Shown: piece after piece, positions 10,777-61,424 of the stretch
How positions within the stretch are numbered: position 1 is the first letter of the stretch
Layout: each line of letters opens with the position of its first letter
Assembly: GCA_964543655.1 (NCBI GenBank)
Contig: CAZIZE010000063.1
Coordinates: 23,020-87,019 of the forward strand
Reading direction: 5' to 3'
DNA length: 64,000 nt
Source: an uncultured bacterium
GTDB lineage: Bacteria; DYJV01
Made by a program: the position numbers and the translations under genes
Notes under the pieces: generated by a model
What the model saw: the letters and a program-made list of their open reading frames with translations, nothing else
What the model was told of the DNA's origin: nothing
Database searches by the model: none

Positions 10777-10781
10777 TATTT

Positions 10782-27828: not shown

Positions 27829-27836
27829 AATTTATT

Positions 27837-31919: not shown

Positions 31920-33269
31920 ATGAATTTTGCGGAAATTGACAAGAAGTATATATGGCACCCATGCACTCAGATGAAAGATCATGAACAGTTTCCTATTATT
32001 CCCATTGTTAAAGGAAAAGGTGTTTACCTATACGATATTAATGGGAATAAACTTTTAGATGCAATTTCTTCATGGTGGGTTAATATATTTGGCCATTCAA
32101 ATGAGAGGATTAATAATGCAATAAAGAAGCAACTTGACACATTAGAGCATGTTATTTTTGCAGGTTTTACTCATGAGCCAGCTGCAATTCTTGCTGAAAA
32201 ACTTATTAAAATAATGCCTGACAATATAAGAAAAATATTTTTTGCAGACAATGGCTCAAGTGCTGTTGAAGTTGCACTAAAAATGAGCTTTCAATATTTT
32301 CAGCAAATAGGTTTAAAGAAAAAAACTAAATTTATATCAATAGAAGGCTCATATCATGGTGAGACAATAGGTGCACTTTCTGTTGGAGGTATTGATCTTT
32401 ATAAGCAGATATATGCTCCAATATTACTTGACTGTATTAAAGTAAAGGGGCCAGATTGTTTTCTTTGTCCATACAACCTCAATAGGAACTCATGTAATGC
32501 AGAGTGTTTTGAATCAATGCAAAAAGCTATAGAAGAGCATCATGAAGAAATTATTTCAGTAATAATAGAACCAATGGTGCAATGTGCCAATAGTATGAAT
32601 ATTTATTCTGAGAAATATCTTATAAAATTAGCAGATTATTGCAAAAGATATAATATCCACTTAATTGCTGATGAAATAGCTGTTGGATTTGGCAGAACTG
32701 GAAAAATGTTTGCATTTGAGCATGCAAATATAAAGCCTGATATTATTTGCCTTTCAAAAGGTATTACTGCAGGATATCTACCTCTATCTGTGGTTTTAAC
32801 AACAGAAGAGGTTTACAATGTGTTTTATGATGACTATGTTAAATTAAAAGCATTTTTACATAGTCACAGTTATACAGGCAATGCAACAGCTTGTGCTGCT
32901 GCTGTGGAGACATTAAAAATTTTTGAAGAGGAAAAAATTATTAATAAAAATCTTGAAAAAAAAGAAAAAATATATAATAAATTATTAGAGGTATTTGATA
33001 ATCATCCAAATATTGGAGAGATAAGGCAGCTTGGTATGATAGCTGCCATAGAAATTGTAAAAGATAAAGAGAAAAAGATTCGTTTTCCATGGGAGCAGAG
33101 AATAGGTTTTCAGGTATATAAAGAAGCAGTGGCACGAGGAGTATTATTAAGACCACTTGGTGATGTAATTTATTTTATGCCACCTTATGTTATAAATGAA
33201 AAAGAGATTGATTTTATGATAGATGTAGCTTATAAGTCAATAAATAAAATTTTAAAAATAGAGAGGTGA
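31920..33269 (+). CDS. bioA: Adenosylmethionine-8-amino-7-oxononanoate aminotransferase BioA
   Basis: Class III aminotransferase with BioA-specific N-terminus (YIWHPCTQMKDHEQFPIIPIVKGKGVYLYDINGNKLLDAISSWWVNIFGH). Confidence 0.85.
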   Translation: MNFAEIDKKYIWHPCTQMKDHEQFPIIPIVKGKGVYLYDINGNKLLDAISSWWVNIFGHSNERINNAIKKQLDTLEHVIFAGFTHEPAAILAEKLIKIMPDNIRKIFFADNGSSAVEVALKMSFQYFQQIGLKKKTKFISIEGSYHGETIGALSVGGIDLYKQIYAPILLDCIKVKGPDCFLCPYNLNRNSCNAECFESMQKAIEEHHEEIISVIIEPMVQCANSMNIYSEKYLIKLADYCKRYNIHLIADEIAVGFGRTGKMFAFEHANIKPDIICLSKGITAGYLPLSVVLTTEEVYNVFYDDYVKLKAFLHSHSYTGNATACAAAVETLKIFEEEKIINKNLEKKEKIYNKLLEVFDNHPNIGEIRQLGMIAAIEIVKDKEKKIRFPWEQRIGFQVYKEAVARGVLLRPLGDVIYFMPPYVINEKEIDFMIDVAYKSINKILKIER

Positions 33270-33272
33270 AAA

Positions 33273-33656
33273 ATGGCACTTGATACTAAAATGAAAGTTT
33301 TGGTTGTTGATGATTTTGCAACCATGAGAAGAATAATTAAAAACATTTTGAGACAGATTGGTTTTACCAATATTATAGAAGCTGATGATGGTTCTACAGC
33401 TCTTCCTATTCTTGAAAAGGACAATATCGACCTTGTAATCACTGACTGGAATATGCCTAAAATGAGTGGATTAGAACTTCTCAAAGCCATTAGGAGTAAC
33501 CCTAATTTAAAAGATACTCCTGTGTTAATGGTAACAGCTGAAGCTTTAAAAGAGAATATAATTGAAGCTGTTAAAGCTGGAGTTAACAACTATGTTGTAA
33601 AGCCATTTACAGCACAAACTTTACAGGAAAAAATAGAGAAAATTTTTGGGAAATAA
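33273..33656 (+). CDS. CheY-like single-domain response regulator
   Basis: KVLVVDDFATMRRII...VITDWNMPKMSGLELLKAIR...PVLMVTAEA...VKPF matches all CheY conserved positions (DD, D57, T87, K109). Confidence 0.85.
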   Translation: MALDTKMKVLVVDDFATMRRIIKNILRQIGFTNIIEADDGSTALPILEKDNIDLVITDWNMPKMSGLELLKAIRSNPNLKDTPVLMVTAEALKENIIEAVKAGVNNYVVKPFTAQTLQEKIEKIFGK

Positions 33657-36015: not shown

Positions 36016-36168
36016 TTTCGGGCTTAAGCCCTCAAAATGACTGTTTTGATGGCAGAGAGGAGCACTGTGTGAAAAAATTACTGTTGGGTTTTACATTTGG
36101 TTTTGGATAAGAGCACCTATAAAAAACAAAGTTGGATTTTATACTTGGCTCTGTATTGGTTATAAAAA

Positions 36169-36240
36169 GCTGGTAAGGGGAATTGAACCCCTGACATGCT
36201 GATTACGAATCAGCTGCTCTACCATCTGAGCTATACCAGC
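36169..36240 (-). tRNA. tRNA-Thr (anticodon CGU)
   Basis: Reverse complement GCTGGTATAGCTCAGATGGTAGAGCAGCTGATTCGTAATCAGCATGTCAGGGGTTCAATTCCCCTTACCAGC folds as a cloverleaf (7-bp acceptor, GCTC/GAGC D stem, anticodon loop TTCGTAA, GGTTCAATT T-loop); CCA is not encoded. Confidence 0.85.
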
Positions 36241-36245: not shown

Positions 36246-38339
36246 TTAATTTCCCATTATTTCATTATAAGCTTTTATTAGCATTTCTCTGTAATATTCT
36301 ATATCATAAGAATCAGCAATTTGTCTAATTTTTACTCGCTCTTCTGAGACTTTGCTTCTATTATCTGTAATTACATATTCTACACTTTCGCCAGGTTGTA
36401 TATTGGTGAGAGAAGATGCAGCAATTATATTTAGATTTTTATTTTTATATGAAGATATAGGTTTTGAAACTCTTTTTTTTATTACCAGTTCATCAATATT
36501 GACCTCTCCATTTTGTAACAGTAGAAGATATTCTTTTAAAATTTTATTAGCGCGTTTATAATCTGGGAAAATTTTTAACAATTTTTGCTGAAAATTTTTT
36601 ATAAATATAGGGGTGTCCCTTTTTCTAAGCATCAGTCCTCTTACCTTTATTTTGCCATTATCAAATATGCCAAAAAATTTATTCATAACCTGTTTATTTT
36701 TATTCTCTGCTGAAGGAAGAAATTTAATGAATTGATAAATCCCTTCTATGTTGAGGATAAAACCAGTTTTAGTTGATATTTCTTTTGCAATATTTGTATA
36801 TTCTTCTCTTGTGGCATTTTTTTTATATATGTAGAGAGAGTCAGTTACTGCATAAATAATTTTAAACCCACTATTTTCAGCTATTTCTTTTGCTTTTAGT
36901 AGAATATCTCTGCCAGCAGCAGTTGTTGCTTCATGAGCTTCTACACATCCAAATTTTGCATTTTTATATCCTAAATAACCAAAGCAAGTAACGAGCATCC
37001 ATTTTATAGCATTCTGTCTATTTTTAAAAACTTCACTTGCTTTAAAATTTTTGTAAAGCTTTCTTTTTTTTAATAAAGGAGATATTGTCTCCGGGATAAT
37101 ACCTTGTTTTTTCTGACAAAAATAGTAATTAGTGCCAGGTATTTTAAGCTTTTCTGAAATATGCTGGCAACATTTGCAGTTTAATGTTTCAACTGATATG
37201 TTGAATTTTTCAATTATTGATGGATACATTGAAAAAAAGTCAACTTCTGCTACATTCTTGAAAATACCTACAGGTGGCAGGAAAAATAGACCACCTTTGT
37301 CAACTTTTATAAAATCTATTGCCCTTTTGAACCTTTCTGGAAAGGCTTTGTGTGAAGGAATAAGGTAATTATTTTTATAAGCTGTTTTTAGCTCCATTGT
37401 GGATATTGAGGAGCCAGGAGAAATTCTCGCAGCTTCTTGCAAAGGAAGTGAAGTGAGCCGTGCCACTTCTATTAACCCGTCAATTCCAGAATTTTTTACA
37501 AAAAAAGAATTATTAATGTCTATATGAATTCTACCTTTAAGATAGCTTATACTATCTTTAAATACTACTTTACCGTATGAAAAAAAGGAGTAAGATTTTT
37601 TTGATACAATTTTCAGATTATCTGTAGGTCTTGAGAGGGGTATATCTATGTTATATTTTTGGGCTCCAAACTTTATTAGGGGAATAATTACAGGATCTCC
37701 TGATAATGTAATAACCATATCAGGATCATATTCTTTAAAAATATTTCCAATGGAAATAAAAAATTCTTCTGTATCAAATTTTTCAAAAAAAAGTTTCTCT
37801 CCATTGGGCATGGTAATATCAATACCTGTCCATTGTGAATACTTTGGATTGCCCTTGCACACAGGGAATATGCCTAAAATGTTTAAAGGTGGTAATTTGT
37901 AATTTATATCCATGGGATTGTCTAAAGATTTAATAGAGATAATATGGTTGTTATTATGTGTTACTTCAACTTTTGCAAATGGAAAAAGATTGTGCTCAAA
38001 GTAAAATTGCAACAGAGGTGAAAGGTCAGAGTTGTAGACTCCTATATTTTCCTGGTTAAGAAGATAAGCTTTTACATTCCAGAAATTTTTAATATCCATT
38101 TTTATACCATAAACTTTTACCTTTTTTCCTGTGTAAATTTCTCCCATTTCTGTAGAGTAAAATGAAATTTTAAAAAATTTAGATAAATTTTTAATAAATT
38201 TATATGATGATTTAACATAAAGTGTAGGAGTGTAATTAAAGTATAGAAAAGATTTGCTTGCTTCATTATTAACTAAACATAGGAGCAATTTATTGTTATC
38301 AATAAAAGTATCAAGGAGAAAAAGTTCATTCTTTTTCAT
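36246..38339 (-). CDS. Family B DNA polymerase (Pol II / archaeal PolB-like) lacking the 3'-5' exonuclease catalytic motifs
   Basis: Motif A DFFSMYPSII, motif B KWMLVTCFGYLGY, motif C IYAVTDSLYI (YxDTDS), KxY-region NKFFGIFDNGKIKVRGL, plus PolB-typical GRIHIDI and GIIPETISPLLKKRKLYK. Exo I (DxE) and Exo II (NxxxFDxxY) positions are replaced (LLDTF; ITLSGDPVIIPLI). Confidence 0.8.
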   Translation of the reverse strand: MKKNELFLLDTFIDNNKLLLCLVNNEASKSFLYFNYTPTLYVKSSYKFIKNLSKFFKISFYSTEMGEIYTGKKVKVYGIKMDIKNFWNVKAYLLNQENIGVYNSDLSPLLQFYFEHNLFPFAKVEVTHNNNHIISIKSLDNPMDINYKLPPLNILGIFPVCKGNPKYSQWTGIDITMPNGEKLFFEKFDTEEFFISIGNIFKEYDPDMVITLSGDPVIIPLIKFGAQKYNIDIPLSRPTDNLKIVSKKSYSFFSYGKVVFKDSISYLKGRIHIDINNSFFVKNSGIDGLIEVARLTSLPLQEAARISPGSSISTMELKTAYKNNYLIPSHKAFPERFKRAIDFIKVDKGGLFFLPPVGIFKNVAEVDFFSMYPSIIEKFNISVETLNCKCCQHISEKLKIPGTNYYFCQKKQGIIPETISPLLKKRKLYKNFKASEVFKNRQNAIKWMLVTCFGYLGYKNAKFGCVEAHEATTAAGRDILLKAKEIAENSGFKIIYAVTDSLYIYKKNATREEYTNIAKEISTKTGFILNIEGIYQFIKFLPSAENKNKQVMNKFFGIFDNGKIKVRGLMLRKRDTPIFIKNFQQKLLKIFPDYKRANKILKEYLLLLQNGEVNIDELVIKKRVSKPISSYKNKNLNIIAASSLTNIQPGESVEYVITDNRSKVSEERVKIRQIADSYDIEYYREMLIKAYNEIMGN

Positions 38340-38565
38340 GTAGCGTTCTGATTTCTTTTAAAAGCTCTATGCACATTGATAACAATATACCTTCCATTGG
38401 CAGGGGGAAAGAGGAATAAGCGCATGCTTGAATATGTTTTCTTGCTTTTTCCCATAATTCATCAAATATCTCTTGATCCTCTTTTCGAAGTGCGCGTCTA
38501 AAATCTTTGAGATTGCTTTTTTCTCTGTTTAATACGTATGTAAAAGGTGCAACTGTCCTGCCCAT
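38326..38565 (-). CDS. Hypothetical small protein (79 aa) within the lexA-polB operon
   Basis: ORF overlapping both neighbours (14 nt with polB, 37 nt with the RecA-fold gene); no recognisable domain. Confidence 0.35.
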   Translation of the reverse strand: MGRTVAPFTYVLNREKSNLKDFRRALRKEDQEIFDELWEKARKHIQACAYSSFPLPMEGILLSMCIELLKEIRTLHEKE

Positions 38566-39068
38566 AGCTTATTAACCCCTTTTTTTAGATGAAGTGGCTT
38601 TACAATAGATGTATCTTCTATAAATACTTTGCTCTTCTTTTCCACTATTTTATAGTATCCTCTTCTATCAAATCTATTTAAAGTTATAATAGCAGGTGAT
38701 ATGTGAGATAGATAAGATAGAGATTTTCTAAAAATTTTCATTGCATGTATATGAGAAATATTGTCATCATCAAGCAGGGTAGTAAAACCCAGTAGTATAA
38801 ATAGAAAATTTTTACCTGTTTTTTTGAAAAAGAGAATTTTCTCTATAAGTTTTAACATTTGAAATGGTGTGAAAGCTCGGGCAATAAATATATTTTCAAG
38901 AATGGTGTATGGTGTAATTTTCATTGCTACACAGATATTTGATATAAGGTATGGGTCAAATTTGTTTGCAGCATCAACAACAATGATATTGGAATTATCT
39001 CTGAAAATAGCCCTGATATAGTACCAGATAAATTTGTGAATCCCTGAATTACCAGCAACTGCAATCAT
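38529..39068 (-). CDS. RecA-fold protein with a degenerate Walker A (ImuA/SulA-like)
   Basis: IAVAGNSGIHKF (degenerate P-loop) then IIVVDAANKFDPYLISNICVAMKI, which aligns to RecA [21 protein letters not shown]. A later hydrophobic strand ends in DDD (FLFILLGFTTLLDDD), like RecA VIVVDSV. 179 aa, similar in size to SulA or ImuA. Confidence 0.5.
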   Translation of the reverse strand: MIAVAGNSGIHKFIWYYIRAIFRDNSNIIVVDAANKFDPYLISNICVAMKITPYTILENIFIARAFTPFQMLKLIEKILFFKKTGKNFLFILLGFTTLLDDDNISHIHAMKIFRKSLSYLSHISPAIITLNRFDRRGYYKIVEKKSKVFIEDTSIVKPLHLKKGVNKLWAGQLHLLHTY

Positions 39069-39682
39069 GATATTTTCCTTATTATCCCAACAACTTTACC
39101 TATTATTTTAACTTCATCAGGATTGATATTGTTAAGGATAATATCTTCATATTTATCATTTTCAGGATGAAGAATGATAAGGTTGTCCTTTTTTATAAAT
39201 CTCTTTAAAGTAATTTCATTGTAAATAGATGCAACAACAATGTCGTTATGCTCAACATTAGAATCAGTTGATACCACAGCAATATCTCCATCTTCAATAA
39301 GAGCATTTATCATTGAATCACCAATAACTTTAAACATAAAAATATTAGAAAATGGAAAAATTTTAGTATCAACAATGTAGTAATCTTCTGCAACTTCGTT
39401 AATATCAATTGGTGAACCAGCAGCTACATAAGATATAAGAGGAGCTTTTTTTATATTACTGGCTGGCTCTTCAATAGAAAGAGATATACCTCTGGAGATT
39501 TTTTTCTCTTTTTTTAAATATCCCTTTTTTTCTAAAATAGTAACATATTTGAAAGCATTTTTAGGTGCAATGCGAAAATGTTCAGCTATCTCTCTAATGG
39601 TAGGGGGCAGCCCCCTGTTATGTAAAAAATCTTTAATAAATAGATAGACTTCTTTTTCTTTTAATGTAATATTGGGTAACAT
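39065..39682 (-). CDS. lexA: LexA repressor
   Basis: N-terminal wHTH (LKEKEVYLFIKDFLHNRGLPPTIREIAEHFRIAPKNAFKYVTILEKKGYL), Ala-Gly cleavage site VAAGSP, catalytic Ser in VIGDSM and Lys in ITLKRF. Confidence 0.9.
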   Translation of the reverse strand: MLPNITLKEKEVYLFIKDFLHNRGLPPTIREIAEHFRIAPKNAFKYVTILEKKGYLKKEKKISRGISLSIEEPASNIKKAPLISYVAAGSPIDINEVAEDYYIVDTKIFPFSNIFMFKVIGDSMINALIEDGDIAVVSTDSNVEHNDIVVASIYNEITLKRFIKKDNLIILHPENDKYEDIILNNINPDEVKIIGKVVGIIRKIS

Positions 39683-42861: not shown

Positions 42862-45558
42862 ATGTTAGGCTCTATATTTAAAAAGGTTTTTGGCTCAAAA
42901 AATGAACGGGAAATAAAAAAATTAAAACCTTATGTTGAAAAGATTAACAGTTTAGAAGAGAAGTATGAAAAGTATTCACAAGAACAGCTTAAAGAATTTA
43001 CTTTTAAATGGCTTGATTATTTTAAAAATAATAAATTTAAATCCCAAGAAAAGATAGAAAAAGTTCTTGATGAAATTCTTCCTGATGCTTTTGCAATAGT
43101 TAGAGAAGCCTCAAAGAGAACGTTGAAAATGAGACATTTTGACGTTCAGCTAATAGGTGGTATTGTATTGCATCAAGGTAAAATCGCTGAAATGAAGACA
43201 GGTGAAGGTAAAACTCTTGTTTCTACACTTTCTGCTTATCTTAATGCCCTTGTTGGAAGAGGTGTGCATATTGTTACTGTTAATGATTATCTTGCCAAGA
43301 GGGATTCAGAATGGATGGGTGTAATTTACCACTATCTTGGGATGGATGTTGGCACAATTGTTCATGATCTTGATGATAATGAGAGGAAGAAGGCTTATAA
43401 CTGCCATATTACATATGGTACTAATAATGAATTTGGTTTTGATTATTTAAGAGATAATATGAAATTTGATATAGAAGATTATGTTCAAAGAGAACATTAT
43501 TATGCAATTGTTGATGAAGTGGATAGTATTTTAATTGATGAAGCAAGGACTCCTCTGATAATTTCTGGCCCAACAGATGAGACAACTGATAAATATGTAA
43601 AGATTAATCAGGTAGTAAAATACCTTAATAGAGAAACTGATTTTACTGTTGATGAAAAGAGTAAAACTGTTAGTTTAACTGAAGAGGGAGTGGCTAAATT
43701 AGAAAAACTTTTAAATCAAGGTAATCTCTATGATCCTTCCAATATTGAAACTCTTCACCATATACATCAAGCTTTAAAAGCAAATGTCCTTTTTAAAAGG
43801 GATGTTGATTATGTTGTAAAAGATGGAGAGGTTTTAATAGTTGATGAATTTACAGGAAGGCTTATGCCTGGTAGACGGTATAGTGATGGTCTTCATCAGG
43901 CTCTTGAAGCAAAAGAGGGTGTTACTGTTGAGAAAGAGAATCAAACCCTTGCATCAATTACATTTCAAAATTACTTTAGAATGTACACCAAGTTAGCAGG
44001 AATGACAGGTACTGCTGATACAGAGGCTGTTGAATTTAATAAAATCTATGGTCTTGATGTTATTGTAATTCCTACAAATAAGCCAATGATCAGGAAAGAT
44101 TACAATGATGTAATATATAAAACTGAAAAAGAGAAATTTAAAGCTGTTATAGATGAGATTGTAGAATGTCACAAAAGAGGGCAACCAGTTTTAGTTGGTA
44201 CGATTTCAATTGAAAAATCAGAAATACTCAGTAAAATGCTTGCTAAAAGAGGGATAAAGCACAATGTTTTAAATGCAAAACATCATGAAAATGAAGCGTA
44301 CATAATAGCTCAAGCAGGTAGAAAAGGAGCTGTTACAATTTCTACAAATATGGCAGGTAGGGGTACTGACATTGTTCTTGGTGGTAATCCTGAGATGATG
44401 CTCAAAGAAGAGATGAAATTAAAAGGTAAAGAGTACACTCCTGAAGAGTATGAAAAGAGATTAAAAGAGTTACAAAAACAGTGTGAAAAGGAGAGAGAAG
44501 AGGTTTTAAAAGCAGGGGGACTTCATGTACTTGGAACAGAGAGACATGAAAGTAGAAGGATAGATAACCAGTTAAGAGGAAGGTCCGGTAGGCAGGGAGA
44601 CCCTGGTTCTTCAAGATTTTATGTTTCCCTTGAAGATGATTTAATGAGAATTTTTGGTGGAGAGAGAATTTCATCATTAATGGATAAACTTAAAATTCCA
44701 GAAGGTGAGCCTATTGAAAACAAGTTGATTACAAAATCCATTGAAAATGCCCAGAAAAAAGTTGAAGGTCACAATTTTGAAATAAGGAAGCAGTTACTTG
44801 AATATGATGATGTTATGAATAAGCAGAGAGAGACAATATATTCTCTTAGAAAAGATATTCTCACAGAAGGAAATCTGAAAGAATTAATGTCAGAATTTAT
44901 AGAGGAATATTTTGATTCTGTTTTCTACAAATATATTGATGAAAAGATTAATCCAGAAGAATGGGATTTTAAATCATTAATAAAAGAGTTAGAGTCTGAC
45001 CTTACAATAAAATTTAATATAGACTTTGACAAATTAGAAGATACACCAGTTCAGGAAATTAGAGAGAAACTTTTAAATATTATTTTCCAGGAGTATGAGA
45101 ATAGGGAGAAAACTTTTGGAGAAGAGTTAATCAGACATCTTGAAAAGTTGATTCTGCTTCATTCTCTTGATACTTTGTGGAAGGAGCATCTTCTTAACAT
45201 TGATTTGTTAAAAGAAGGGATTGGGCTTAGAGGATATGCCCAGCAAGACCCTGTTAGAGTATATCAGAAAGAGGCTTATGAGCTATTTTTAAATTTAATA
45301 GATAGTATAAAGATGACAGCTGTTAAAGATTTCTTTAGAATAAGAGTTGTCACAGAAGATGAGGTTAGCAAGCTTGAAGAAGAGACCAAAAAAGATCAAG
45401 AGTTTGTGCTTGTTGCAGGAGGAGAGGCTACTCAGCAAGAGGCAAAGAAAAAACCTCAGAAAAGAAAATTTAAAAAAGTAGGGAGAAATGATCCATGCCC
45501 ATGTGGTAGTGGGAAAAAATATAAGAAGTGTTGCTGGGCAAAGGATCATGCAAAATAA
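42862..45558 (+). CDS. secA: Preprotein translocase ATPase SecA
   Basis: Full-length SecA ([32 protein letters not shown]) with C-terminal zinc-binding [13 protein letters not shown]. Confidence 0.95.
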
Positions 45559-47438: not shown

Positions 47439-48731
47439 GTGAGATTTTACGTTAAAACATTTGGATGTAAAGTTAATCAATTTGAATCTGAGTATTTTAT
47501 TAACAGCTTAATTAAAAAAGGTTTTAAATTAACGGATAGTGAAAAAGATAGCAATGTAGTTATTGTTAATAGCTGTGCGGTGACAAATGAAGCAGAGCGT
47601 CAGTTAAGGCAATATTTAAGAAAACTGAGAAGGAATTTTGAAAATATAAAAATAGTTTTAACTGGATGCGCAGTTGATTGCACAGAAAAATTTAATAAAG
47701 AGTTGTTTGATACAATAGTATCAAATTATTATAAACAGAACTTACCTTCCATTATTTCTGAAAATAGTAATTCTACATGGTTAGAATCTATATTTAATCA
47801 AAAAGAGTTTGTTGAGCTTAAAGCTGAAGAGAGTTTTCAACATACAAGAAAATTTTTTAAAATTCAGGATGGCTGTTCTAATTATTGCTCTTACTGTATT
47901 ATCCCATATGTTAGAGGTGTTCCAAGGAGCTTACCTGAGGAAAAAGTTTTGGAAAATTTAATTTATTTTTCAGAGAAATTCAGAGAGGTTGTTTTAACAG
48001 GGATTAATGTGGAGATGTATGGGAAAGATTTAGGAATTAGAAATGGTTTTTTAAAGCTTATGGAAAGTATTGAAAAGGAATTGGATAAAAGAGGAGTTAA
48101 AGATTTTAGACTGAGGGTAACATCGTTAAAACCTGATAAAGTTTTATACAATTATGTGGATTTTGTTGCAGAGTCTAAATATTTTGCACCTCATTTTCAT
48201 ATTTCTGTTCAAAACTTTAATAATAAAGTTTTAAAATTAATGAACAGGAATTATACATCAGAAGATATTTTTAATATTGTTGCTAAAATTAGGGAAAAGA
48301 TTGCAAATGCTGGTATTGGTGCTGATATGATTACAGGGTTTATTGGTGAAGGAGAAATGGAATTTGAAGATAATTTGAAAAAAATAGGAGAGATTGATAT
48401 AAACTTTTTCCATATATTCCCTTTTAGCAGGAGAAACAGAACAAAAGCTGAAAAATTAAATGAAACTTGTGACAATAAAGAAAAGAAAAGGCGGGTGAAA
48501 ATTCTAAAAAAAATAACAGATAGAAAAAAAGAGGAGTTTATAAAGAGAAACCTTTTTAGAAAATTTAGTGTGCTCGTTGAAAAAGAGGAAGATGGTTATT
48601 TTACTGGCTATAGTGAAAATTATATAAAAATTTTCATACAAAGAAAAAATCATTTTACATTGAAAAATAAATTTGTTAATGTTTATGGAAAGAAAATTAA
48701 AGATAGATTTTTTATTGAAGCTGAACTATAG
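47439..48731 (+). CDS. MiaB-like radical SAM methylthiotransferase (MtaB/RimO/MiaB family)
   Basis: N-terminal MTTase domain with three Cys (FGCKVNQ...NSCAV...TGCAV), radical SAM CSNYCSYC, C-terminal TRAM-like region. Confidence 0.8.
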   Translation: MRFYVKTFGCKVNQFESEYFINSLIKKGFKLTDSEKDSNVVIVNSCAVTNEAERQLRQYLRKLRRNFENIKIVLTGCAVDCTEKFNKELFDTIVSNYYKQNLPSIISENSNSTWLESIFNQKEFVELKAEESFQHTRKFFKIQDGCSNYCSYCIIPYVRGVPRSLPEEKVLENLIYFSEKFREVVLTGINVEMYGKDLGIRNGFLKLMESIEKELDKRGVKDFRLRVTSLKPDKVLYNYVDFVAESKYFAPHFHISVQNFNNKVLKLMNRNYTSEDIFNIVAKIREKIANAGIGADMITGFIGEGEMEFEDNLKKIGEIDINFFHIFPFSRRNRTKAEKLNETCDNKEKKRRVKILKKITDRKKEEFIKRNLFRKFSVLVEKEEDGYFTGYSENYIKIFIQRKNHFTLKNKFVNVYGKKIKDRFFIEAEL

Positions 48732-48776
48732 ATTAGAGTGCTAAAATTATATGCAAATAAATTAAAGGAGGAGATA

Positions 48777-48971
48777 ATGATTACCAAAGATATGTCAATT
48801 ACAGAAATTGTTCAAAAGTATCCACAGTTAATTGAAGTTTTTCAAAGCTTTGGGTTAGGTTGACTTGGTTGCATTGCAGCTACTTTTGAGACACTTGAGC
48901 AGGGTGCTCAAGCACACGGACTTGATGTAAATGAATTAGTTGATAAATTAAACCAGAAATTGAGTGAGTAG
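48777..48971 (+). CDS. Candidate selenoprotein: DUF1858 / hybrid-cluster-protein-associated redox-disulfide family, with in-frame UGA (48861-48863) at the first Cys of CxxC
   Basis: SD AAAGGAGGAG 6 nt before the ATG. Reads MITKDMSITEIVQKYPQLIEVFQSFGLG-U-LGCIAATFETLEQGAQAHGLDVNELVDKLNQKLSE and is family-like only if TGA is read through. Perfect 8-bp hairpin CTTGAGCA-GGG-TGCTCAAG at 48894-48912, 31 nt after the UGA. Confidence 0.5.
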
Positions 48972-50074
<1,103 letters not shown>

Positions 50075-50075
<1 letters not shown>

Positions 50076-54023: not shown

Positions 54024-55577
54024 ATGAAAAAAGTAGAAAATCATCTGATTTTAAATATTACCCGAATGGGTGATATTATTCAATCAGCACCTTTATTAAC
54101 TAATCTTAAAAAAAAAGGTGTAAAGATAAGCTACCTTTTGTTGAGCAATTTTAAAGAAACAGCTACACTTATCCCTGAAATTGATGAAATAATAGAGCTT
54201 GATTTCAGCTCATTGCTTGAAGCAATTGACAGATTTGATTTTGCCACTGCTTTTAATTATTTTAAATATTTTGAAGAAGATTTATTAAAAATAAAATTTA
54301 AAAAATTATATAATCTTTCCTTTTCAAAATTAAGTGCATACCTTTCATATTTTATAAACTCTGATTATAAAAAAGGATTAATTTTCAAAAGAAGTAATGA
54401 ATTTGTTGCAAATGATAACTGGAGTAGATTTTTTTTATCAATAGTAGATTACAGAGAGTTTTCTCCATTTAATCTTGTAGATATTTATTCTATGATTGGT
54501 TCAGCAAATAGTGGAAATATTTTTATTGAAAGAATTGATAATAAAGAGAGCCTGAAAATAGGTTTTGTTATGGGTGCTTCATCGTATGATAGACGTTGGT
54601 CTCCTGAAAATTTTGCTATATTAGCAGAAAAGATTTTAAAAGAATTTCCATTAAGCAGGATAATTTTATTTGGTACAAAATCTGAAAAAGAGCTTGGAGA
54701 AAGATTTTTTAAATACTTTAAGTTCGATAAAGGGAACATAGTGGATTTGATTGGTAAGACAACTGTAAAAGAATTGGCTGAAGAGATAAAAAATATAGAT
54801 ATTCTCATAACAAATGACACAGGTACAATGCATTTAGCATGGTATTTTGGAAAAAGGGTTATTGAGTTATCACTTGGTCCAGCTCTCTATAACACAACAG
54901 GTCCTTATGGAGATGGACACATTGTAGTGCAGCCTGAAATCGATTGTGTTCCATGCAGTTATAAAACAAAGTGTAAAACATTGCATTGCCATAAATTAAT
55001 ATCAGCAGATGTTGTTATGCAATGCTTGAGATTTTTATTAAAAGAAGAGAGAAATTTTTCTTCATGTAATAATGTGAAAATATTGGAAACTTATTTTGAC
55101 AGAAAAGGTTTTCTCAGTTTCAAACTAATTCATGGAAAAAAAACAAAAGATATAGAGTTGAGAGAATTATTGAAAGATATATGGATTGATACTTTAGAAA
55201 AGTGTTTGAAAAAAAATGAAAAATATATTATTAATAGAGAAGCGCGATTTTACCTTATTTACAAATATATTTCAAATATTAAAAAGATAATAGAGAATTG
55301 CTTAAATTATATTGAAAAAAATAGAATTGATGATGTGGAAGGCAGTATTGAGTTACTTTACAATATTGATTATGAGCTGAGAAATCTTATTTACAGTAAC
55401 TATAAAGAGTTAATTCCATTTTATAAATACTTTGAATTTAGTAAAAATTTATTATCAGAAACAGATTTGAAATATAATCTAAAGTCATTAAAGTATTTGT
55501 ACGATATTTTACTATGGCAAATTAAGATGTTAGAATATAAAAATTTAAATGGAGGAGAGTATGAAAGTTTATCTTGA
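54024..55577 (+). CDS. GT9-family (heptosyltransferase-like) glycosyltransferase with a roughly 170-aa C-terminal extension
   Basis: N-terminal ILNITRMGDIIQSAPLL and central GKTTVKELAEEIKNIDILITNDTGTMHLAWYFGKRVIELSLGP resemble ADP-heptose:LPS heptosyltransferase motifs. Confidence 0.55.
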   Translation: MKKVENHLILNITRMGDIIQSAPLLTNLKKKGVKISYLLLSNFKETATLIPEIDEIIELDFSSLLEAIDRFDFATAFNYFKYFEEDLLKIKFKKLYNLSFSKLSAYLSYFINSDYKKGLIFKRSNEFVANDNWSRFFLSIVDYREFSPFNLVDIYSMIGSANSGNIFIERIDNKESLKIGFVMGASSYDRRWSPENFAILAEKILKEFPLSRIILFGTKSEKELGERFFKYFKFDKGNIVDLIGKTTVKELAEEIKNIDILITNDTGTMHLAWYFGKRVIELSLGPALYNTTGPYGDGHIVVQPEIDCVPCSYKTKCKTLHCHKLISADVVMQCLRFLLKEERNFSSCNNVKILETYFDRKGFLSFKLIHGKKTKDIELRELLKDIWIDTLEKCLKKNEKYIINREARFYLIYKYISNIKKIIENCLNYIEKNRIDDVEGSIELLYNIDYELRNLIYSNYKELIPFYKYFEFSKNLLSETDLKYNLKSLKYLYDILLWQIKMLEYKNLNGGEYESLS

Positions 55578-56181
55578 TAACCAGCAGATAGAAGTTGATG
55601 TTAACAAATTTAATAATTTAGAGGATCTTATTTATGAAGTAATGAGTAAGTTTATTCCAGGTGATAGATTGTTGGTTGAAGTAAAAGTTAATGATGTAAC
55701 TTTTTCTGAGAGATGGCCTGGAGAAGCTAAAATAGTCCCTCTTGATAAAATAGTGAAATTAGATTTTCTCACTGTTCCAATAGAAGAAGCTGCATCTAAA
55801 ATGCTTGATGATTTACCGGCTCAGATAGATATGATTCATAAGGGATTGTTAGAAGCAGCAGAGCTTTACAGAGTTGCAGATGAGCAGGAAGCCAACCTAC
55901 ATTTTGTTAAAATGTTAGCTACATTAAGAGATTTTGTAAGTTTTATTACTCAGCTTAGGAAAGCAAATATTATTAATTGGGATAAACTTAATATTGATGG
56001 TATGGAAATAGAAACTCATTATGAAAAACTTAATAAATTAATAGATGAGATGCTTGATGTTCAGGAAGATGAAGATTGGATTTTACTTGCTGATCTTATT
56101 GAATATGAATTAAATCCAATAATGATAAAATGGAAAGAGTTTTTAGAGCAGGCAAATAGGCATTTAAAAGAAAAAATATGA
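55561..56181 (+). CDS. Hypothetical protein (about 206 aa)
   Basis: GGAGGAG Shine-Dalgarno 7 nt before the ATG at 55561; no recognisable domain. Confidence 0.4.
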   Translation: MKVYLDNQQIEVDVNKFNNLEDLIYEVMSKFIPGDRLLVEVKVNDVTFSERWPGEAKIVPLDKIVKLDFLTVPIEEAASKMLDDLPAQIDMIHKGLLEAAELYRVADEQEANLHFVKMLATLRDFVSFITQLRKANIINWDKLNIDGMEIETHYEKLNKLIDEMLDVQEDEDWILLADLIEYELNPIMIKWKEFLEQANRHLKEKI

Positions 56182-58073
56182 AAGAAGTAGTTTATAAAGG
56201 ACATGGCCAAATAGAGAATTACTCTATTGATTCTGCTCTATGGGGTGTTGTTGCCCATGAGCAGAGGCATGCAAATTTTAACAGATATATTTCATCAATA
56301 AAAAATGAAGAAGTAGATCAAGATGTTAAAATTACCATTCAATTTGAAGATGGCAAACCTGTACCAGTAAAAGCCTACACAGAAGCTAAATTTGACAAAA
56401 ATAGTAAAAAAGAAGAAGATTTTTTAAAAGTATTATTTTTAAATTTTCAAATTTCAAAAACCAAAAAAGAAATAGAAAATACTGAAAATAAAGATAGAAG
56501 AATAGAACTATACATTAAACTGAGAGACTATGAGCAGCAACTTGAAAACTTAAAAAAGAGATTATTTATTTCTGACAAAACGGAATATAAAAAAGATAAT
56601 GCCCAATTTTATGGTATTTACGATTTCCAGAAATATAACATTCCACCTGTTAGATTAACAGACCCTTTTTTATCAGGTTATGAAGTTAACCAATTGTTAA
56701 AAGATGCTTATCTTAAAGATAGCTCCTCTACAGCAATGCCTGAGAAATTAATATATCAGAATAAGAATTACAAAGATTATGTTGTTAATGCATTGGAAGA
56801 GCTTTATAGAAAATTTTTGGATTTAGATTCATTTTTAAATGATTATAATTTTCAATTTTATCAAGCTAAATCAAACGATTATTTTAATTTAGTTATTACA
56901 GATAATTACAATGATGGAGAAAAGGAATTTAAGATAAATATTAAAAGCATTGCAAAATCATTTATAGTGTATTCGAAAAAATTTTTTGATCCTTATGAAG
57001 CTCTTGGGATAAGTGGTAGTTTTAAGTTAAATGGAGTAGAAATAGATGTTGATACTACAGATTCACTTTATGATATTGTTGAAAAGATAAACTGGGGTGA
57101 AGATACCAATCACAATGGTGTTCTTGATTATGATCTTGGAGAAGATGTTAATAATAATCAGCAGTTAGATGGTGGGACATCTGATCATGGGATATATGCT
57201 TATATTGAAAATAACAGATTGTTTTTAAAAAATTTTGAAACAGGAGATAAAACCATTGTAATAGATGATTCAGATAATATTTTACACAATTTTAACATTA
57301 TAGCTGAAAATCCTGATGATGATTCATATTATTTCCCAAATATTTTTCAAAAGGGCACAAATGCAGATGTTGTTATTAATGGAAAAGAAATCTCTTCTGT
57401 TTCAAATCTTATTTCATACAATGGAATGTTATTTAATTTAAAGCATGTTACCAATGGTGATTATACTCTTAAAATTAATGCTGATAATGATACTGTTTTT
57501 AATAAAATTAAAATGTTTGTTAATGAGTACAACAGAGTAATTAAAGATTTAAATGAAAAATTAGAAGATGATAATTTTACCAAATCTTTTGTTGTATTAA
57601 AGATGAAGAGGGAGCTTACAGAGGCAGTATTTTCTGATGTTAAAAATATTGATGTAACAGATATAGGATTTAATTTATTAGATGAGAAAAATTATATTAC
57701 CCCTTTGCAACTAAGAGATCTTACTAATAAAAAATTTAATTTAAGCTTACACGATTTACTATATTCTATTGGTATTAAAAATAACAATGATGAAACAATT
57801 GAGATAGATGAAGACACATTAAAAAATTCTATAAAAAAGAATAAAAGTGGAGTGTATAATCTATTTTTTTCTGAAAATGGAGTGGTAAATAGATTAAAAG
57901 AAGTTGTAAACAAAGTGATTAATACAGATAATGGAATGATAGCAAATGAAATCAGCCAGATCTCCTCAGAAAAATTATCAGAAATATTCAAGCTTTATGA
58001 AAAAGAAAAGGTTTATGCTCAATACTATGCTGAAAAATTAGGAACAATTAATGAAATAATAACATTAAAATAG
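56178..58073 (+). CDS. Hypothetical large protein (631 aa) with two dockerin/EF-hand-like Ca-binding loop motifs
   Basis: DTNHNGVLDYD and DVNNNQQLDGGTSD match the DxNxNGxxD loop pattern; otherwise no assignable domain. Start overlaps the previous gene by 4 nt. Confidence 0.4.
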   Translation: MKEVVYKGHGQIENYSIDSALWGVVAHEQRHANFNRYISSIKNEEVDQDVKITIQFEDGKPVPVKAYTEAKFDKNSKKEEDFLKVLFLNFQISKTKKEIENTENKDRRIELYIKLRDYEQQLENLKKRLFISDKTEYKKDNAQFYGIYDFQKYNIPPVRLTDPFLSGYEVNQLLKDAYLKDSSSTAMPEKLIYQNKNYKDYVVNALEELYRKFLDLDSFLNDYNFQFYQAKSNDYFNLVITDNYNDGEKEFKINIKSIAKSFIVYSKKFFDPYEALGISGSFKLNGVEIDVDTTDSLYDIVEKINWGEDTNHNGVLDYDLGEDVNNNQQLDGGTSDHGIYAYIENNRLFLKNFETGDKTIVIDDSDNILHNFNIIAENPDDDSYYFPNIFQKGTNADVVINGKEISSVSNLISYNGMLFNLKHVTNGDYTLKINADNDTVFNKIKMFVNEYNRVIKDLNEKLEDDNFTKSFVVLKMKRELTEAVFSDVKNIDVTDIGFNLLDEKNYITPLQLRDLTNKKFNLSLHDLLYSIGIKNNNDETIEIDEDTLKNSIKKNKSGVYNLFFSENGVVNRLKEVVNKVINTDNGMIANEISQISSEKLSEIFKLYEKEKVYAQYYAEKLGTINEIITLK

Positions 58074-58082
58074 GATTTTAAA

Positions 58083-58508
58083 GTGAAAGAAAAATTTTTA
58101 ATTATTATAGATGAGGAAAAGAAAATTTACAATGAGATTTACTCGTTAAATTTGACACTTTTAAACAAAGTTAAAAGTTTTGAATTTGAGGAATTTAAAA
58201 AAGATGTTTTAAAGAAAGATAAACTTATTAATGAGCTTCAAAATTTTGACAAAGAATTGATGAATTTATGGCGCAACTGGGAAGAATATAAAGAGCTGTT
58301 TTCTGAAAATGAGAAAAATAATATTAGGGAATTAAAATCATTAATGGAGAAAAATTTTGAAATTGAAAATATAATAATTTCTGAATTTGAAAAATTAATG
58401 GAAAAAGAGAAAACAAAAAATAAGCATATTCAGAAAGGTAAAGCAGCTTTTAATGCTTATAAAACCAAAAAAGTATCATTCCCATATTTTGTAAATGAAA
58501 AGGGTTAA
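58083..58508 (+). CDS. Hypothetical coiled-coil protein (141 aa)
   Basis: ORF convergent with fliS; heptad-rich; no domain recognised. Confidence 0.35.
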   Translation: MKEKFLIIIDEEKKIYNEIYSLNLTLLNKVKSFEFEEFKKDVLKKDKLINELQNFDKELMNLWRNWEEYKELFSENEKNNIRELKSLMEKNFEIENIIISEFEKLMEKEKTKNKHIQKGKAAFNAYKTKKVSFPYFVNEKG

Positions 58509-58522
58509 GCGGAAATTTCCGC

Positions 58523-58951
58523 TTATGCCCTTAGTTCTGATAAATTAACTTTTCCTTCTGGTAAGTTAGCAGTTTCTGATTCTTGAGGATTTTTTTTGCT
58601 AATTTCTTCCCATGCTTCTTTTAAAGTATTTAAAATAGAGATTACTTCCATAATCATTTTTTTATTTTTTGAAATATTTGCTTTCACAAGGTAGAAGTAT
58701 AGAAAATTGTAAATTTTTCTCAAATTTACAGCGATTTCACCACCTTCTTTCATATTGAGGGAGTTGTTTAGCTCATCAATAATATCTTGTGCTTTTGAGA
58801 TGTAGATACCCTTATTTGCCATGTCATTTTTTTCCAAATATTGAATGGCTGTTTTTAGGAATGAAATTGCACCATCATAGAGCATTACAACAAGTTTTAA
58901 CCTGTCACTTGTGGTAACCTGCATTTTTTGATAATTCATGTAATTGTTCAT
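58523..58951 (-). CDS. fliS: Flagellin-specific chaperone FliS
   Basis: YQKMQVTTSDRLKLVVMLYDGAISFLKTAI...KAQDIIDELNNSL is canonical FliS. Start moved to the ATG preceded by GGAGGA (MNNYMNYQ...), which removes the 86-nt overlap with fliD. Confidence 0.8.
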   Translation of the reverse strand: MNNYMNYQKMQVTTSDRLKLVVMLYDGAISFLKTAIQYLEKNDMANKGIYISKAQDIIDELNNSLNMKEGGEIAVNLRKIYNFLYFYLVKANISKNKKMIMEVISILNTLKEAWEEISKKNPQESETANLPEGKVNLSELRA

Positions 58952-59006
58952 TTTATCCTCCTGAAAAGTTTTTCCTTTTTCAATTTGTATAGCAATTGAC
59001 GTGCCA

Positions 59007-61424
59007 TTATATTTGAGGTAGTTTGGCAATATTTGCCTGAAGGTATTGCATTTGGCCATTAAGCTGTGAAAGGGTTGCTTCCATTCTTGCAAATTGGTTT
59101 TGCAATCTTTTTTCTATAGATAAAATTCTATTTTTTTCTCTATCAATTTTAGTATCTATATTATTGATTATGCCGTTATAATTGTCAATTAAAACATTTA
59201 AAGGTCCATGATTAGGATCAAGAAGATCATCCAATTTGTTGTTTAATGTTTTTGTAACACCTGTAAGTAGTCTTATTTCAGCATCATATGTGCCATCTAC
59301 TGATGTATCAACAAGCAATTGTAAACCAGCTTCAGGATTACCAGCTTGACCAACTATATAGTTGCCATCTATAGTGGCATCATGACCATTTATTGTTGCT
59401 GCTGTAATTGTTCCACCTGATACAGTTACTTCAACTTCATAAGTGCCTGGTTCAGTAAGATTTTTTACATGGCTGTCATATGTAATTTTATTGGTTGTGG
59501 TATCATTTCTTCCTACACAATCAGCACCAAAAAGCAGTGCAACATCATCAGGATGATCTTGCAAAGCTTCTTCAAGTTTTGCACTATCTATTTCAAGATA
59601 TTTATCATCAACAGTTTTTATACCAATGGAGCTTAATGAAACGTATCTTTCAGAGCCTGGTGGAGGTTCAATAGAATTGATAGATTTAAATCCTGGTGGA
59701 ATTTCTGTTGCAGTTCTCATAATGTCGTATTGCACCATTTGTGCAGCATAATTACTTTGTAAAGTTCCTGCTTCTTTTGTCTGTGCATCATACTTTACAA
59801 CATCATCCATATATTTCATTAAATCGTTATATGCATCAACAAAGTTTTGTATTTTTTCTTCCATTGCAGAAGTGTCATTTGCAACAACAATAGTGGTATT
59901 ACCTGTAGATTTTAAAGTAATAGTTACACCATCAATAAGGTCTGATATTACATTGGAATCATGCTGAATGTATTGTGTTGGATCAGTTGGAAACCCATCT
60001 AATCTCACCATAGAATTTTGTGCTTCCTGTGTTTTGGTAAAAGTTGCAGATGTGAAATTTGTTGTACCAGAACTCCCATCAAGTGTAGTAGCTGTATCAT
60101 CAATTTCTATAGTATATGCAGCTCCCTGATTTTTACCTGTGAGAACAAGATGGTATGAATTACTTAACCCCTGTCCATCATTAACTATAGTGGCAATAAC
60201 TCCTGGGTTTTTGCTATCTTCATTTATTGCATCAGCAAGATCTTTTAATGTTGCACCATCTGCAACTGATACCTGAATTGTATCACCACCTGCATATTTG
60301 TAAGCAAAAATTTTTGCTGAACCACTGCTATTAATTATAGTATCTTCAGAAGCTACTCCAGCATGTAATTCCTTTTCTGTTTGAGCAAGACCAGAATCCT
60401 GAGCTTTTTGTAAATCTGGTGCCCATAAATCTATTTTGAATTTATCTCCTTCAGTGTAAGTTGTGTTGGCATTTAAGGTAATTTGAACCCCTTGTTCCAC
60501 ATCAAAAGTCCCTGTAGCGCTTGTTTCAATAACTCCTGATTTACCAAGCTCATCATCTGTCCATCTGATTTTTACTGTGTCTCCTGCACCTAAATCTCCA
60601 CCTTGAATTACCTCAAAATTAATTGATTTATTGGTAACTCCAGTGTAGGTGCCTCCACTTGTAACATTACTTGAGCCAGATGTTCCTACAATATCCTCAA
60701 CATCGTCAATATTTGTATTGACAAAGTCTGTGGAAGTGTTGTTGGTTGGCACTGTAATTGTATTAGCACTACCACCTGATTGGCCTGTTAAAACCAATCT
60801 GTAAGGATTACTTGTAGAACTATCATTTAAAATACTTGCAACAATTAATTTATTCCCACTTCCATCATCATTGTCTGAATCACCATTAATTGCATTAGCT
60901 AACTCCTCAAGGCTAAGATCACCACTGCTATCAGCATCATAGGCTGAGGCCTCTGTGTCTGTAACAGTAATTGTATGGCCACCTATAGTTAAAACAATTG
61001 CATTTGTAGCACTACCAAGTGTGTAAACAGAGTCAGTTGAAGCAGAGAATCCCTGAGATGCAAGTTTATGATTAATTGCTGAACCAACAGTGAGATTGTA
61101 TGAACCAGGTTCAGCAAGAGGAGTGTTGGTTACAGTTGCTACACTTTCATTGCTTGAAAGGGAAGTTCTTGAATAAAAGTCGTTAAAAGAATCAAGAGCT
61201 GCAACAGAAGATTGAAAGGTACTGAGTTTTGAGTTATAATTTTGCAGTTCATCTATTTTCTTTTGCCATGATTCTTTCCAAACTTCCATTCTGTTAACTG
61301 TAACAGATTCCTGTTTAACAACGGCATCAATAATACTTTTGTAGTCTATTCCTGAAGCAATACCTGTAAATGTTATTGATGGTCCGGCAGTTGTGCTTAC
61401 TGCATCTGCCATATTTCCCTCCAA
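59007..61424 (-). CDS. fliD: Flagellar filament cap protein FliD (HAP2), long form (805 aa)
   Basis: FliD N-terminal (ITFTGIASGIDYKSIIDAVVKQESVTVNRME...) and C-terminal helical regions (ILSIEKRLQNQFARMEATLSQLNGQMQYLQ); large central insertion. Confidence 0.8.
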   Translation of the reverse strand: MEGNMADAVSTTAGPSITFTGIASGIDYKSIIDAVVKQESVTVNRMEVWKESWQKKIDELQNYNSKLSTFQSSVAALDSFNDFYSRTSLSSNESVATVTNTPLAEPGSYNLTVGSAINHKLASQGFSASTDSVYTLGSATNAIVLTIGGHTITVTDTEASAYDADSSGDLSLEELANAINGDSDNDDGSGNKLIVASILNDSSTSNPYRLVLTGQSGGSANTITVPTNNTSTDFVNTNIDDVEDIVGTSGSSNVTSGGTYTGVTNKSINFEVIQGGDLGAGDTVKIRWTDDELGKSGVIETSATGTFDVEQGVQITLNANTTYTEGDKFKIDLWAPDLQKAQDSGLAQTEKELHAGVASEDTIINSSGSAKIFAYKYAGGDTIQVSVADGATLKDLADAINEDSKNPGVIATIVNDGQGLSNSYHLVLTGKNQGAAYTIEIDDTATTLDGSSGTTNFTSATFTKTQEAQNSMVRLDGFPTDPTQYIQHDSNVISDLIDGVTITLKSTGNTTIVVANDTSAMEEKIQNFVDAYNDLMKYMDDVVKYDAQTKEAGTLQSNYAAQMVQYDIMRTATEIPPGFKSINSIEPPPGSERYVSLSSIGIKTVDDKYLEIDSAKLEEALQDHPDDVALLFGADCVGRNDTTTNKITYDSHVKNLTEPGTYEVEVTVSGGTITAATINGHDATIDGNYIVGQAGNPEAGLQLLVDTSVDGTYDAEIRLLTGVTKTLNNKLDDLLDPNHGPLNVLIDNYNGIINNIDTKIDREKNRILSIEKRLQNQFARMEATLSQLNGQMQYLQANIAKLPQI

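Follow-up and report, generated by a model that had tools for sequence, protein, structure and literature searches.

The DUF1858 domain is listed among the predicted prokaryotic selenoprotein families with the motif CxxU (U, selenocysteine, Sec), its representative being WP_012065717.1 (PMC9312934, PMC13188914), for which the deep-Sep supplement gives the sequence …GLHCLGUPGATMES…. In the 2026 review, families with differing Sec positions are treated as separate subfamilies, and DUF1858 has a single CxxU entry (PMC13188914). Sec at either position of a CxxC motif has a precedent in the Trx-like 1 family, in which both UxxC and CxxU forms occur (PMC2398784). We analyzed a 64,000-nt stretch of DNA from an uncultured bacterium (contig CAZIZE010000063.1, positions 23,020–87,019), referred to below as the window, in which positions 48777–48971 of the forward strand hold a small DUF1858 gene with an in-frame TGA. 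Judged from its sequence, this is very probably a functional Sec-encoding gene of the UxxC type. The assignment rests on an in-frame UGA that has been maintained for long and under selection, on a hairpin that is linked to the UGA and resembles a Sec insertion sequence (SECIS), and on membership of a known selenoprotein family.

The predicted window protein shares with the CxxU selenoprotein the Pfam family, a similar single-domain size and the presence of Sec for a Cys of the C-x-G-C motif. The two differ in that Sec replaces the second Cys in the catalogued form (C-L-G-U) and the first Cys in the window (U-L-G-C); because of this, the window UGA lies 9 nt farther from the hairpin than the UGA of CxxU genes. 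The Cys-type members of DUF1858/TIGR03980, of which 2k5e and 2k53 are solved examples, have 49–71% identity to the window protein in their nearest forms, the same length, the same predicted five-helix fold (template modeling (TM) score 0.87) and the same conserved residues except the first Cys, for which they use TGY, whereas the window has TGA and the hairpin. The name of TIGR03980 implies an association with the hybrid cluster protein, whereas the window gene adjoins mtaB and tgt and has no gene for this protein in its vicinity. The thioredoxin-fold UxxC selenoproteins (Trx, Grx, Prx-like and DsbA-like) have in common with the window protein the UxxC motif, the small size and a presumed thiol/selenol-disulfide exchange, but their fold is that of Trx, whereas the model for the window family is all-alpha. 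The ScdA_N domain of RIC/ScdA/YtfE has a related fold and weak similarity across the whole domain. Its scores, however, are below the cut-offs, the window protein is without the di-iron hemerythrin-like domain, and the ScdA alignment differs in sequence from the window at the G-C-L-G-C region and shows two gapped residues there.

The coding sequence at 48777–48971 (+) was delimited by its frame, profile matches, alignment, and the ratio of nonsynonymous to synonymous changes (pN/pS). It begins with ATG 48777–48779, which is preceded by AAAGGAGGAG at 48764–48773; the Shine-Dalgarno core GGAGG at 48767–48771 (+) can be read directly and leaves a 5-nt spacer to the ATG. The frame ends with TAG 48969–48971. 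Codon 29 (48861–48863, +), in the column of the first Cys of the CxGC motif, is the in-frame TGA and predicted Sec codon, and TGC at 48870–48872 (+) encodes Cys32, the putative resolving or partner Cys of the UxxC motif, which was invariant across three homologue alignments. When the TGA is read through, the product is MITKDMSITEIVQKYPQLIEVFQSFGLG-U-LGCIAATFETLEQGAQAHGLDVNELVDKLNQKLSE, with 64 residues and the motif U29-L-G-C32. The segment 3′ of the TGA has no start codon or Shine-Dalgarno site of its own in the window. The list of open reading frames (ORFs) of the window holds only a 41-residue fragment (48738–48863) that ends at the TGA. The preliminary description of this DNA had thus correctly recognized a frame of 64 codons, preceded by a strong ribosome-binding site and hidden by a TGA at codon 29; the peptide that it printed was right in sequence but lacked the last two residues, SE (…KLSE).

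Profile searches were run with Cys put in at codon 29. The protein matched Pfam DUF1858 (PF08984) end to end (profile 1–59/59; E = 1.4e-22; 80 bits vs a cut-off of 32.2) and likewise NCBIfam TIGR03980 prismane_assoc (‘hybrid cluster protein-associated redox disulfide domain’; profile 1–58/58; E = 9.3e-28; 96 bits vs 44.95), in agreement with the family assignment made earlier. Weak matches to ScdA_N and the RIC N-terminal domain (E = 5e-5 and 6.5e-5) stayed under the family cut-offs. Alignment to database homologues showed that the TGA column corresponds to the first Cys of a near-invariant C-x-G-C motif, exactly where the preliminary description had placed it: this motif, with Cys in the column of the window TGA, was present in 131/136 of the small homologues retrieved. 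The other five were three W-x-G-C sequences, one C-x-G-W sequence and a truncated fragment, P0019, which proved to be the 41-residue call of the window sequence itself in the public protein collection. For P0001, P0004 and P0006, the ‘W’ is a TGA in the fetched DNA, the gene caller having used genetic code 4. None of the 136 retrieved database proteins carries an annotated U. Cys32 is present in the window protein, and the C-x-G-C pair is complete only if the TGA is read as Sec or Cys. As regards annotation, the public gene calls mask these genes, either by giving TGA as Trp (P0001, P0004, P0152, P0006) or by reporting a 41-residue N-terminal fragment (P0019).

A degenerate DNA pattern, composed of TGA-x-Gly-Cys and the downstream conserved Ala, Glu, Gly and Ala-His-Gly codons, was scanned over a species-representative genome collection and a metagenome collection. 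The pattern had one match in the window and none in 100 window shuffles. The results showed that 11/12 of the matches in the genome collection and 7/7 in the metagenome collection were complete DUF1858 genes whose codon in this place is likewise TGA. The remaining match, L010 (Bryobacterales, 59% GC), was rejected as a chance match without a DUF1858 frame. Together with the loci found by protein look-up, the scans yielded 16 distinct full-length genes, encoding 14 distinct proteins, with the same TGA in independent assemblies. Their host contigs range from 26 to 59% GC and are labeled Bacillota, Clostridia, Symbiobacteriaceae or ‘bacterium’. Each gene has its own start codon, keeps the frame, and ends with a normal stop at codon 64–67, and a GGAGG-type site precedes the start codon in 16/16.

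We then compared the sequences on the two sides of the TGA separately by Nei-Gojobori counts in 16 gene pairs. Downstream of the TGA, pN/pS was 0.02–0.43, which is the same range as upstream, so that purifying selection is equally strong on the two sides. The window and L013 differ in this part by 12 synonymous and 2 non-synonymous changes (pN/pS 0.05), and L006 and L012 by 14 synonymous changes and 1 non-synonymous change (pN/pS 0.02). The preliminary description had pointed out that a sense codon in close relatives would indicate a pseudogene or a sequencing error; no such relatives were seen, the closest (91%, 88%, 86% and 77% protein identity) and the distant ones all having TGA. Thus, since the TGA recurs in relatives with intact and selected downstream coding sequence, the window copy appears to be neither a pseudogene nor an error.

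Elsewhere in the window TGA acts as a normal stop, as had been noted before. It ends 9/57 of the large ORFs, including BioA and LexA, for which the end of the full-length profile match coincides with the TGA. In relatives, mtaB likewise stops at a TGA, which forms part of an ATGA overlapping the DUF1858 start ~85 nt before the TGA that is predicted to be recoded. When the window was scanned for further genes with an in-frame TGA, a single striking candidate emerged; this BioA-TGA-CheY ORF of 604 codons (31920–33656, +) was rejected because it gave two full-length profile matches and hence represents two ordinary genes, with cheY starting 3 nt after the BioA TGA in the same frame.

Downstream of the predicted recoding site, CTTGAGCA/TGCTCAAG make up a perfect inverted repeat of 8 bp around a GGG loop. 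The repeat begins 30 nt after the last TGA base, i.e. at the 31st nt, in accordance with the preliminary description. This candidate SECIS hairpin, CUUGAGCA-GGG-UGCUCAAG (48894–48912, +), can be drawn with 8 bp, or with 7 bp and an apical A-GGG-U. On its own the hairpin has a folding energy of −10.3 kcal/mol (z = −2.75 vs shuffles); the whole 65 nt after the UGA are not unusually stable (z of the minimum free energy (MFE) = −0.86 vs shuffles). The published consensus for bacterial SECIS elements comprises a loop of 3–9 nt, a stem of 4–16 bp, an MFE of ≤ −7.5 kcal/mol, a G at the first two positions of the loop, usually in the form N1-G-[G/U]-N-N2 with N1 and N2 paired, and a distance of 16–37 nt from the UGA to the apical loop (PMC13188914). 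The window hairpin agrees with this consensus in loop size, stem length, apical pattern and MFE.

The stem is intact in 5/5 of the genes of the window clade (window, L013, L015, L018 and L008; 77–92% protein identity). In L008, the closing pair A-U has become U-A through a non-synonymous change from CAG to CTG and a synonymous change from GGT to GGA, and L018 has a U.G wobble for a U-A pair of the stem. Third codon positions vary in 50/57 codons outside the hairpin vs 2/6 inside (Fisher p = 0.007, from few and related sequences), and both of the variable third positions inside keep the pairing. For a two-helix structure evaluated in 17 Sec-form sequences, 66.7% of the cells were paired vs ≤41% in slid controls, and there were 16 double-sided changes vs 8.2 ± 1.7 in shuffles; these pairing statistics are descriptive, as the two helices were picked after inspecting the sequences. 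The earlier proposal that the hairpin belongs to a bacterial SECIS is therefore upheld with respect to the model criteria and the structure-preserving substitutions, with the reservation that its spacing lies at the limit of the model.

Among the 32 fetched loci, the exact 19-mer was confined to Sec-form genes. The Cys homologues L031 and L032 gene B have the same LEQGAQA peptide, but it is spelled CUUGAACAAGGUGCACAGG and CUUGAACAGGGUGCCCAGG, which form no stem (−3.2 and −1.7 kcal/mol). L032 has a Sec and a Cys paralogue, the former 200 nt upstream of the latter, with 3′ halves of almost the same DNA sequence; the hairpin region has exactly three synonymous differences between the two, all within the hairpin (GAG/GAA, GCT/GCC and CAA/CAG). 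These tandem DUF1858 paralogues of L032, located at 461–652 (CxxU, TGA at 554) and 851–1042 (CxxC), are identical in 53/64 residues, and the gene caller annotated just a 31-residue fragment of the Sec form, from a Met after the TGA. An identical 19-nt hairpin, CUUGAGCAGGGUGCUCAAG, occupies the same codons in the CxxU genes L026 and L032 gene A, and in the CxxU forms it is the sole SECIS candidate. The hairpin is 21 nt from the UGA in these genes, with a central loop distance of 28–29 nt, vs 30 nt and 37–38 nt in the UxxC window gene. Since the same hairpin is found at the same codons, one SECIS may serve both Sec positions. It is mainly because the CxxU genes share it at the central spacing that we accept it for the window gene despite the marginal spacing there, and we consider that 48894–48912 is probably the SECIS of this gene.

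A small hairpin at about +6 to +22 after the UGA (loop AUU), which is also drawn by RNAalifold, was rejected as a SECIS. Its loop lacks a G, the G-C-x-A-A codons impose part of its pairing, and its pairs are broken in 2/5 of the clade members at each of two positions.

The structure was modeled with AlphaFold from a 73-sequence alignment headed by a Cys homologue with 70% identity to the window protein. The model of this homologue (predicted local distance difference test score, 90) is all-alpha with five short helices, and the two motif residues are in the loop leading into helix 3. The best Foldseek matches were 2k5e and 2k53, which are unannotated nuclear magnetic resonance structures (TM score 0.87), followed by 2fi0 and the YtfE N-terminal domain, and phmmer agreed with this. 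Since the model is all-alpha and these are its best matches in the PDB, the fold is not thioredoxin-like. Because of its helix N-cap position, and as the NCBIfam name suggests, the Sec/Cys pair would most simply be a selenenylsulfide couple. Judging by motif and family name, the product is most likely a small redox or sulfur-relay protein that alternates between selenol/thiol and selenenylsulfide; for a function of the redox-disulfide type rather than metal or Fe-S handling, we put the chances at roughly even.

In the mechanism that we propose, the gene would be expressed from the mnmA-cysK/M-mtaB-[DUF1858 gene]-tgt cluster and translation would start at ATG 48777. At UGA-29 the stop would be overridden, and SelB with Sec-tRNA(Sec) would insert selenocysteine, the mRNA hairpin at 48894–48912 recruiting SelB as a bacterial SECIS. 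The predicted product is a 64-residue, all-alpha DUF1858 (ScdA_N-like) domain with U29-x-G-C32 in the loop capping helix 3, and by its motif and family name it may cycle between the selenol/thiol and the selenenylsulfide state. The in-frame UGA, the membership of the family, the Sec/Cys alignment, the selection on the codons after the UGA, and the conservation of the hairpin with its linkage to the UGA were observed directly, whereas the identity of the inserted residue as Sec, the binding of SelB to the hairpin, the redox chemistry and the partner are the parts of this scheme that we infer.

Other results are neutral towards, or weigh against, the gene being a Sec gene that is served by this hairpin. 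Neither selA, selB and selD nor tRNA-Sec turned up in the sequence covered, which comprised the 64-kb window, its flanking 10 kb at either end and the fetched loci; for a window taken from a metagenome assembly, we regard this absence as uninformative and not as negative evidence. All 57 large ORFs of the window were annotated by NCBIfam or Pfam and the 10 kb beyond each end were read, and no further selenoprotein gene was present among the annotated ORFs or in the 10 kb beyond either end. ARAGORN detected no tRNA-Sec in the window and 24 loci. Searches against Rfam (with gathering scores for the window as a whole and E ≤ 10 for the locus) gave tRNA-Thr and chance matches only, and none of them to the hairpin. 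The literature found on DUF1858 gives no function and no experimentally characterized member, and nothing relevant was found on TIGR03980 or on a redox disulfide together with hybrid cluster protein and selenoprotein. With regard to the hairpin, the distance from the UGA to the loop is 37 nt (loop AGGGU) or 38 nt (GGG), at or just past the limit of 16–37 nt. The Cys homologue L027 keeps 5/8 of the pairs, and, as the hairpin also sits in codons of a conserved peptide, part of the pairing comes free with coding. In addition, the UxxC genes of the Bacillota type are without the window hairpin and have instead a proximal stem-loop in columns 17–33 after the UGA, its GUU loop lying at a spacing of ~20 nt (L006, L019, L012, L022, L021, L011, L016 and L014). 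This stem has compensatory changes, from A-U to G-C in L011 and L016 and from G.A to U-A in L014. Because the Bacillota-type genes carry this different and more proximal hairpin, no single SECIS accounts for all UxxC forms; the sequences hint at two SECIS solutions among UxxC genes, through a second independent solution or more than one origin.

If the window copy were a pseudogene or reflected a sequencing or assembly error, the TGA would be a real stop yielding a 28-residue peptide or nothing, and the downstream DNA would be decaying. The truncation of the frame at the TGA by standard gene callers (P0019, 41 residues) and the lack of Sec machinery in the window, the flanking 10 kb and the fetched loci would fit this explanation, which we nevertheless regard as extremely improbable: independent assemblies and samples contain 16 distinct genes with the same TGA, and the sequence beyond it shows a pN/pS of 0.02–0.43 with many synonymous differences, keeps its frame and its stop at codon 64–67, and is without a start codon or Shine-Dalgarno site of its own in the window. 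Neither is there a long conserved antisense ORF that would explain the downstream conservation. An alternative is a reassigned code or non-Sec read-through, in which TGA would be translated as a standard residue, be it Trp (code 4), Gly (code 25) or some other. The public calls with W in P0001, P0004 and P0152, which derive from the use of code 4 on low-GC contigs, and the GC content of the window of only 29.7% point in this direction. However, TGA terminates 9/57 of the large window ORFs, including full-length BioA and LexA, as well as mtaB directly upstream in relatives, and the same TGA is found in metagenome-assembled genomes of 45–59% GC that are labeled Bacillota, Clostridia and Symbiobacteriaceae. 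Moreover, the column is Cys in 131/136 homologues, Trp or Gly would destroy the motif, and a conserved hairpin linked to the UGA is not expected under a reassigned code. We therefore judge this explanation to be very improbable as well, and retain Sec as the predicted residue.

Even if the gene encodes a selenoprotein, its SECIS might be another, weaker or non-canonical element, and the 48894–48912 hairpin might be kept owing to codon or peptide constraint, mRNA stability or ribosome pausing ahead of the coupled tgt. This is suggested by the spacing of 37–38 nt at the edge of the model, by the more proximal hairpin of other UxxC genes, in which some 20 nt separate the UGA and the loop, by the 5/8 pairs retained in the Cys form L027, and by the further small hairpin that RNAalifold draws near +7 to +21. 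The last of these is, however, broken in 2/5 of the clade members at two positions and has no loop G, and the proximal stem of the Bacillota type was rejected as the window SECIS since it cannot form there (A.G mismatch). The 19-mer, in turn, tracks the UGA rather than the peptide, and it is the sole candidate in the CxxU forms, at the canonical spacing of 28–29 nt. An element other than the hairpin thus seems unlikely to us. Doubt is greater about the chemistry. Instead of forming a selenenylsulfide, the U/C pair could bind a metal or an Fe-S cluster, or handle NO and iron in the manner of the related N-terminal domain of RIC/ScdA/YtfE; we consider this possible, though not the probable outcome. 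The weak but specific similarity to ScdA_N and the RIC N-termini (E = 5e-5 and 6.5e-5; PDB 9r7j and 5fnn), the fold that is not thioredoxin-like, the Fe-S enzyme encoded by the neighboring mtaB and the reported DUF1858-SufT fusion (PMC4982691) would all be in line with it. A selenenylsulfide, on the other hand, is favored by the name of the NCBIfam family, ‘redox disulfide domain’, by the modeled position of the CxxC at a helix N-cap, which is a classic redox arrangement, and by the fact that the replacement of Cys by Sec is mostly found in redox motifs (PMC13188914).

The gene lies in a same-strand run of secA, mnmA, cysK/M, mtaB, the DUF1858 gene, tgt, an MqnA-type menaquinone gene and nrd. 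Its upstream neighbor, mtaB (47439–48731, +; TIGR01579, 362 bits), encodes a radical-SAM tRNA ms2t6A methylthiotransferase and is its conserved partner, the DUF1858 gene being directly behind mtaB in 7/7 of the Gram-negative-type loci (window, L013, L015, L018, L008, L007 and L017). The stop of mtaB and the start of the DUF1858 gene overlap as ATGA in L015, L018, L008 and L007, and in L017 the ORFs overlap by ~11 nt. On the other side, tgt (48972–50075, +), which encodes tRNA-guanine transglycosylase, has a TTG start that abuts the DUF1858 stop codon, and it is the next gene in the five loci of the window clade (window, L001/L013, L015, L018 and L008). None of the annotated window ORFs is hcp-like, mtaB and tgt being the neighbors. 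The Bacillota loci have different neighbors. The conserved translational coupling allows the speculation that the DUF1858 selenoprotein serves MtaB; the linkage to mtaB is a lead to function, not proof of function.

Some further observations were made on these neighborhoods. The genes clustered around the Sec gene in the window (mnmA, cysteine synthase, mtaB and tgt) all encode sulfur and tRNA-modification enzymes. At 45488–45558, the listed mnmA ORF and the end of secA share 71 nt, and the MnmA profile begins at residue 24; the true mnmA start is probably near 45557. L008 (DYJV01000049.1), which is labeled ‘Candidatus Methylomirabilis sp.’, has 34% GC and the synteny of the window clade, mtaB-DUF1858(Sec)-tgt-mqnA, and its bin label looks doubtful. 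Upstream of the DUF1858 gene, a gene for a C_GCAxxG_C_C ‘putative redox-active protein’ is located at 7131–7568 in L014 (just upstream) and at 313–732 in L011 (about 3 kb). The C_GCAxxG_C_C family is itself among the listed selenoprotein families.

Other parts of the window contain a flagellar cluster at 1–7550 (flgA, flgI, flgJ, flgM, flgN, flgK, flgL, csrA and fliW) and a second one at 55549–61424 (fliD, fliS and a second FliD-like gene), as well as methylmalonyl-CoA mutase, epimerase and carboxyltransferase genes at 8116–12335. A DpnII-family restriction endonuclease gene adjoins that of a CcrM/DpnII-type adenine methyltransferase (26929–28691, −), forming a type II restriction-modification pair. 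At 36246–39682 (−), lexA, an unannotated 179-residue ORF that overlaps it by ATGA, and the gene of a family-B DNA polymerase run in one direction and by appearance constitute an SOS-type translesion cassette. A tRNA-Thr(CGT) gene is located at 36168–36240. With respect to the source of the DNA, two contigs of the ENA assembly ERZ27262694 overlap the window, and L013 (GenBank CAZBLP01) is its nearest relative in GTDB. The SecA protein of the window has relatives at 74–95% identity; at about 64% follow those from metagenome-assembled genomes labeled Deltaproteobacteria, Thermodesulfobacteriota or Desulfobacterales.

The UxxC DUF1858 protein looks like an uncatalogued sub-type: it is a real member of the family, and it lacks the Sec position that defines the CxxU subfamily. 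The sub-type is apparently missing from the catalogues of 2022 and 2026. Most such genes are invisible in the gene calls examined, where they appear as 41- or 31-residue fragments or with a ‘Trp’ under the wrong code 4, and since the calls mask most UxxC genes, a recurrent selenoprotein sub-type seems to be missing from annotation. A more far-reaching proposal would be that the UxxC form is a distinct subfamily that arose by a shift of Sec from the second to the first Cys, with the same SECIS re-used 9 nt farther away, and that in one Gram-negative lineage it took on the role of selenol redox or sulfur-relay partner to MtaB, dedicated to this enzyme and coupled to it in translation, possibly within a wider mnmA-cysK-mtaB-X-tgt operon for tRNA thiolation and modification. 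Taken as a whole, we find this rather unlikely. No new principle is involved, as Sec/Cys exchange in redox motifs and switching of the Sec position are already established. The CxxU and UxxC genes do, however, bear on the migration of Sec within a CxxC motif, and with the hairpin 21 or 30 nt after the UGA they constitute a natural experiment on the maximum distance between SECIS and UGA. For DUF1858, a domain family of unassigned function, the coupling to mtaB provides a first testable functional lead.

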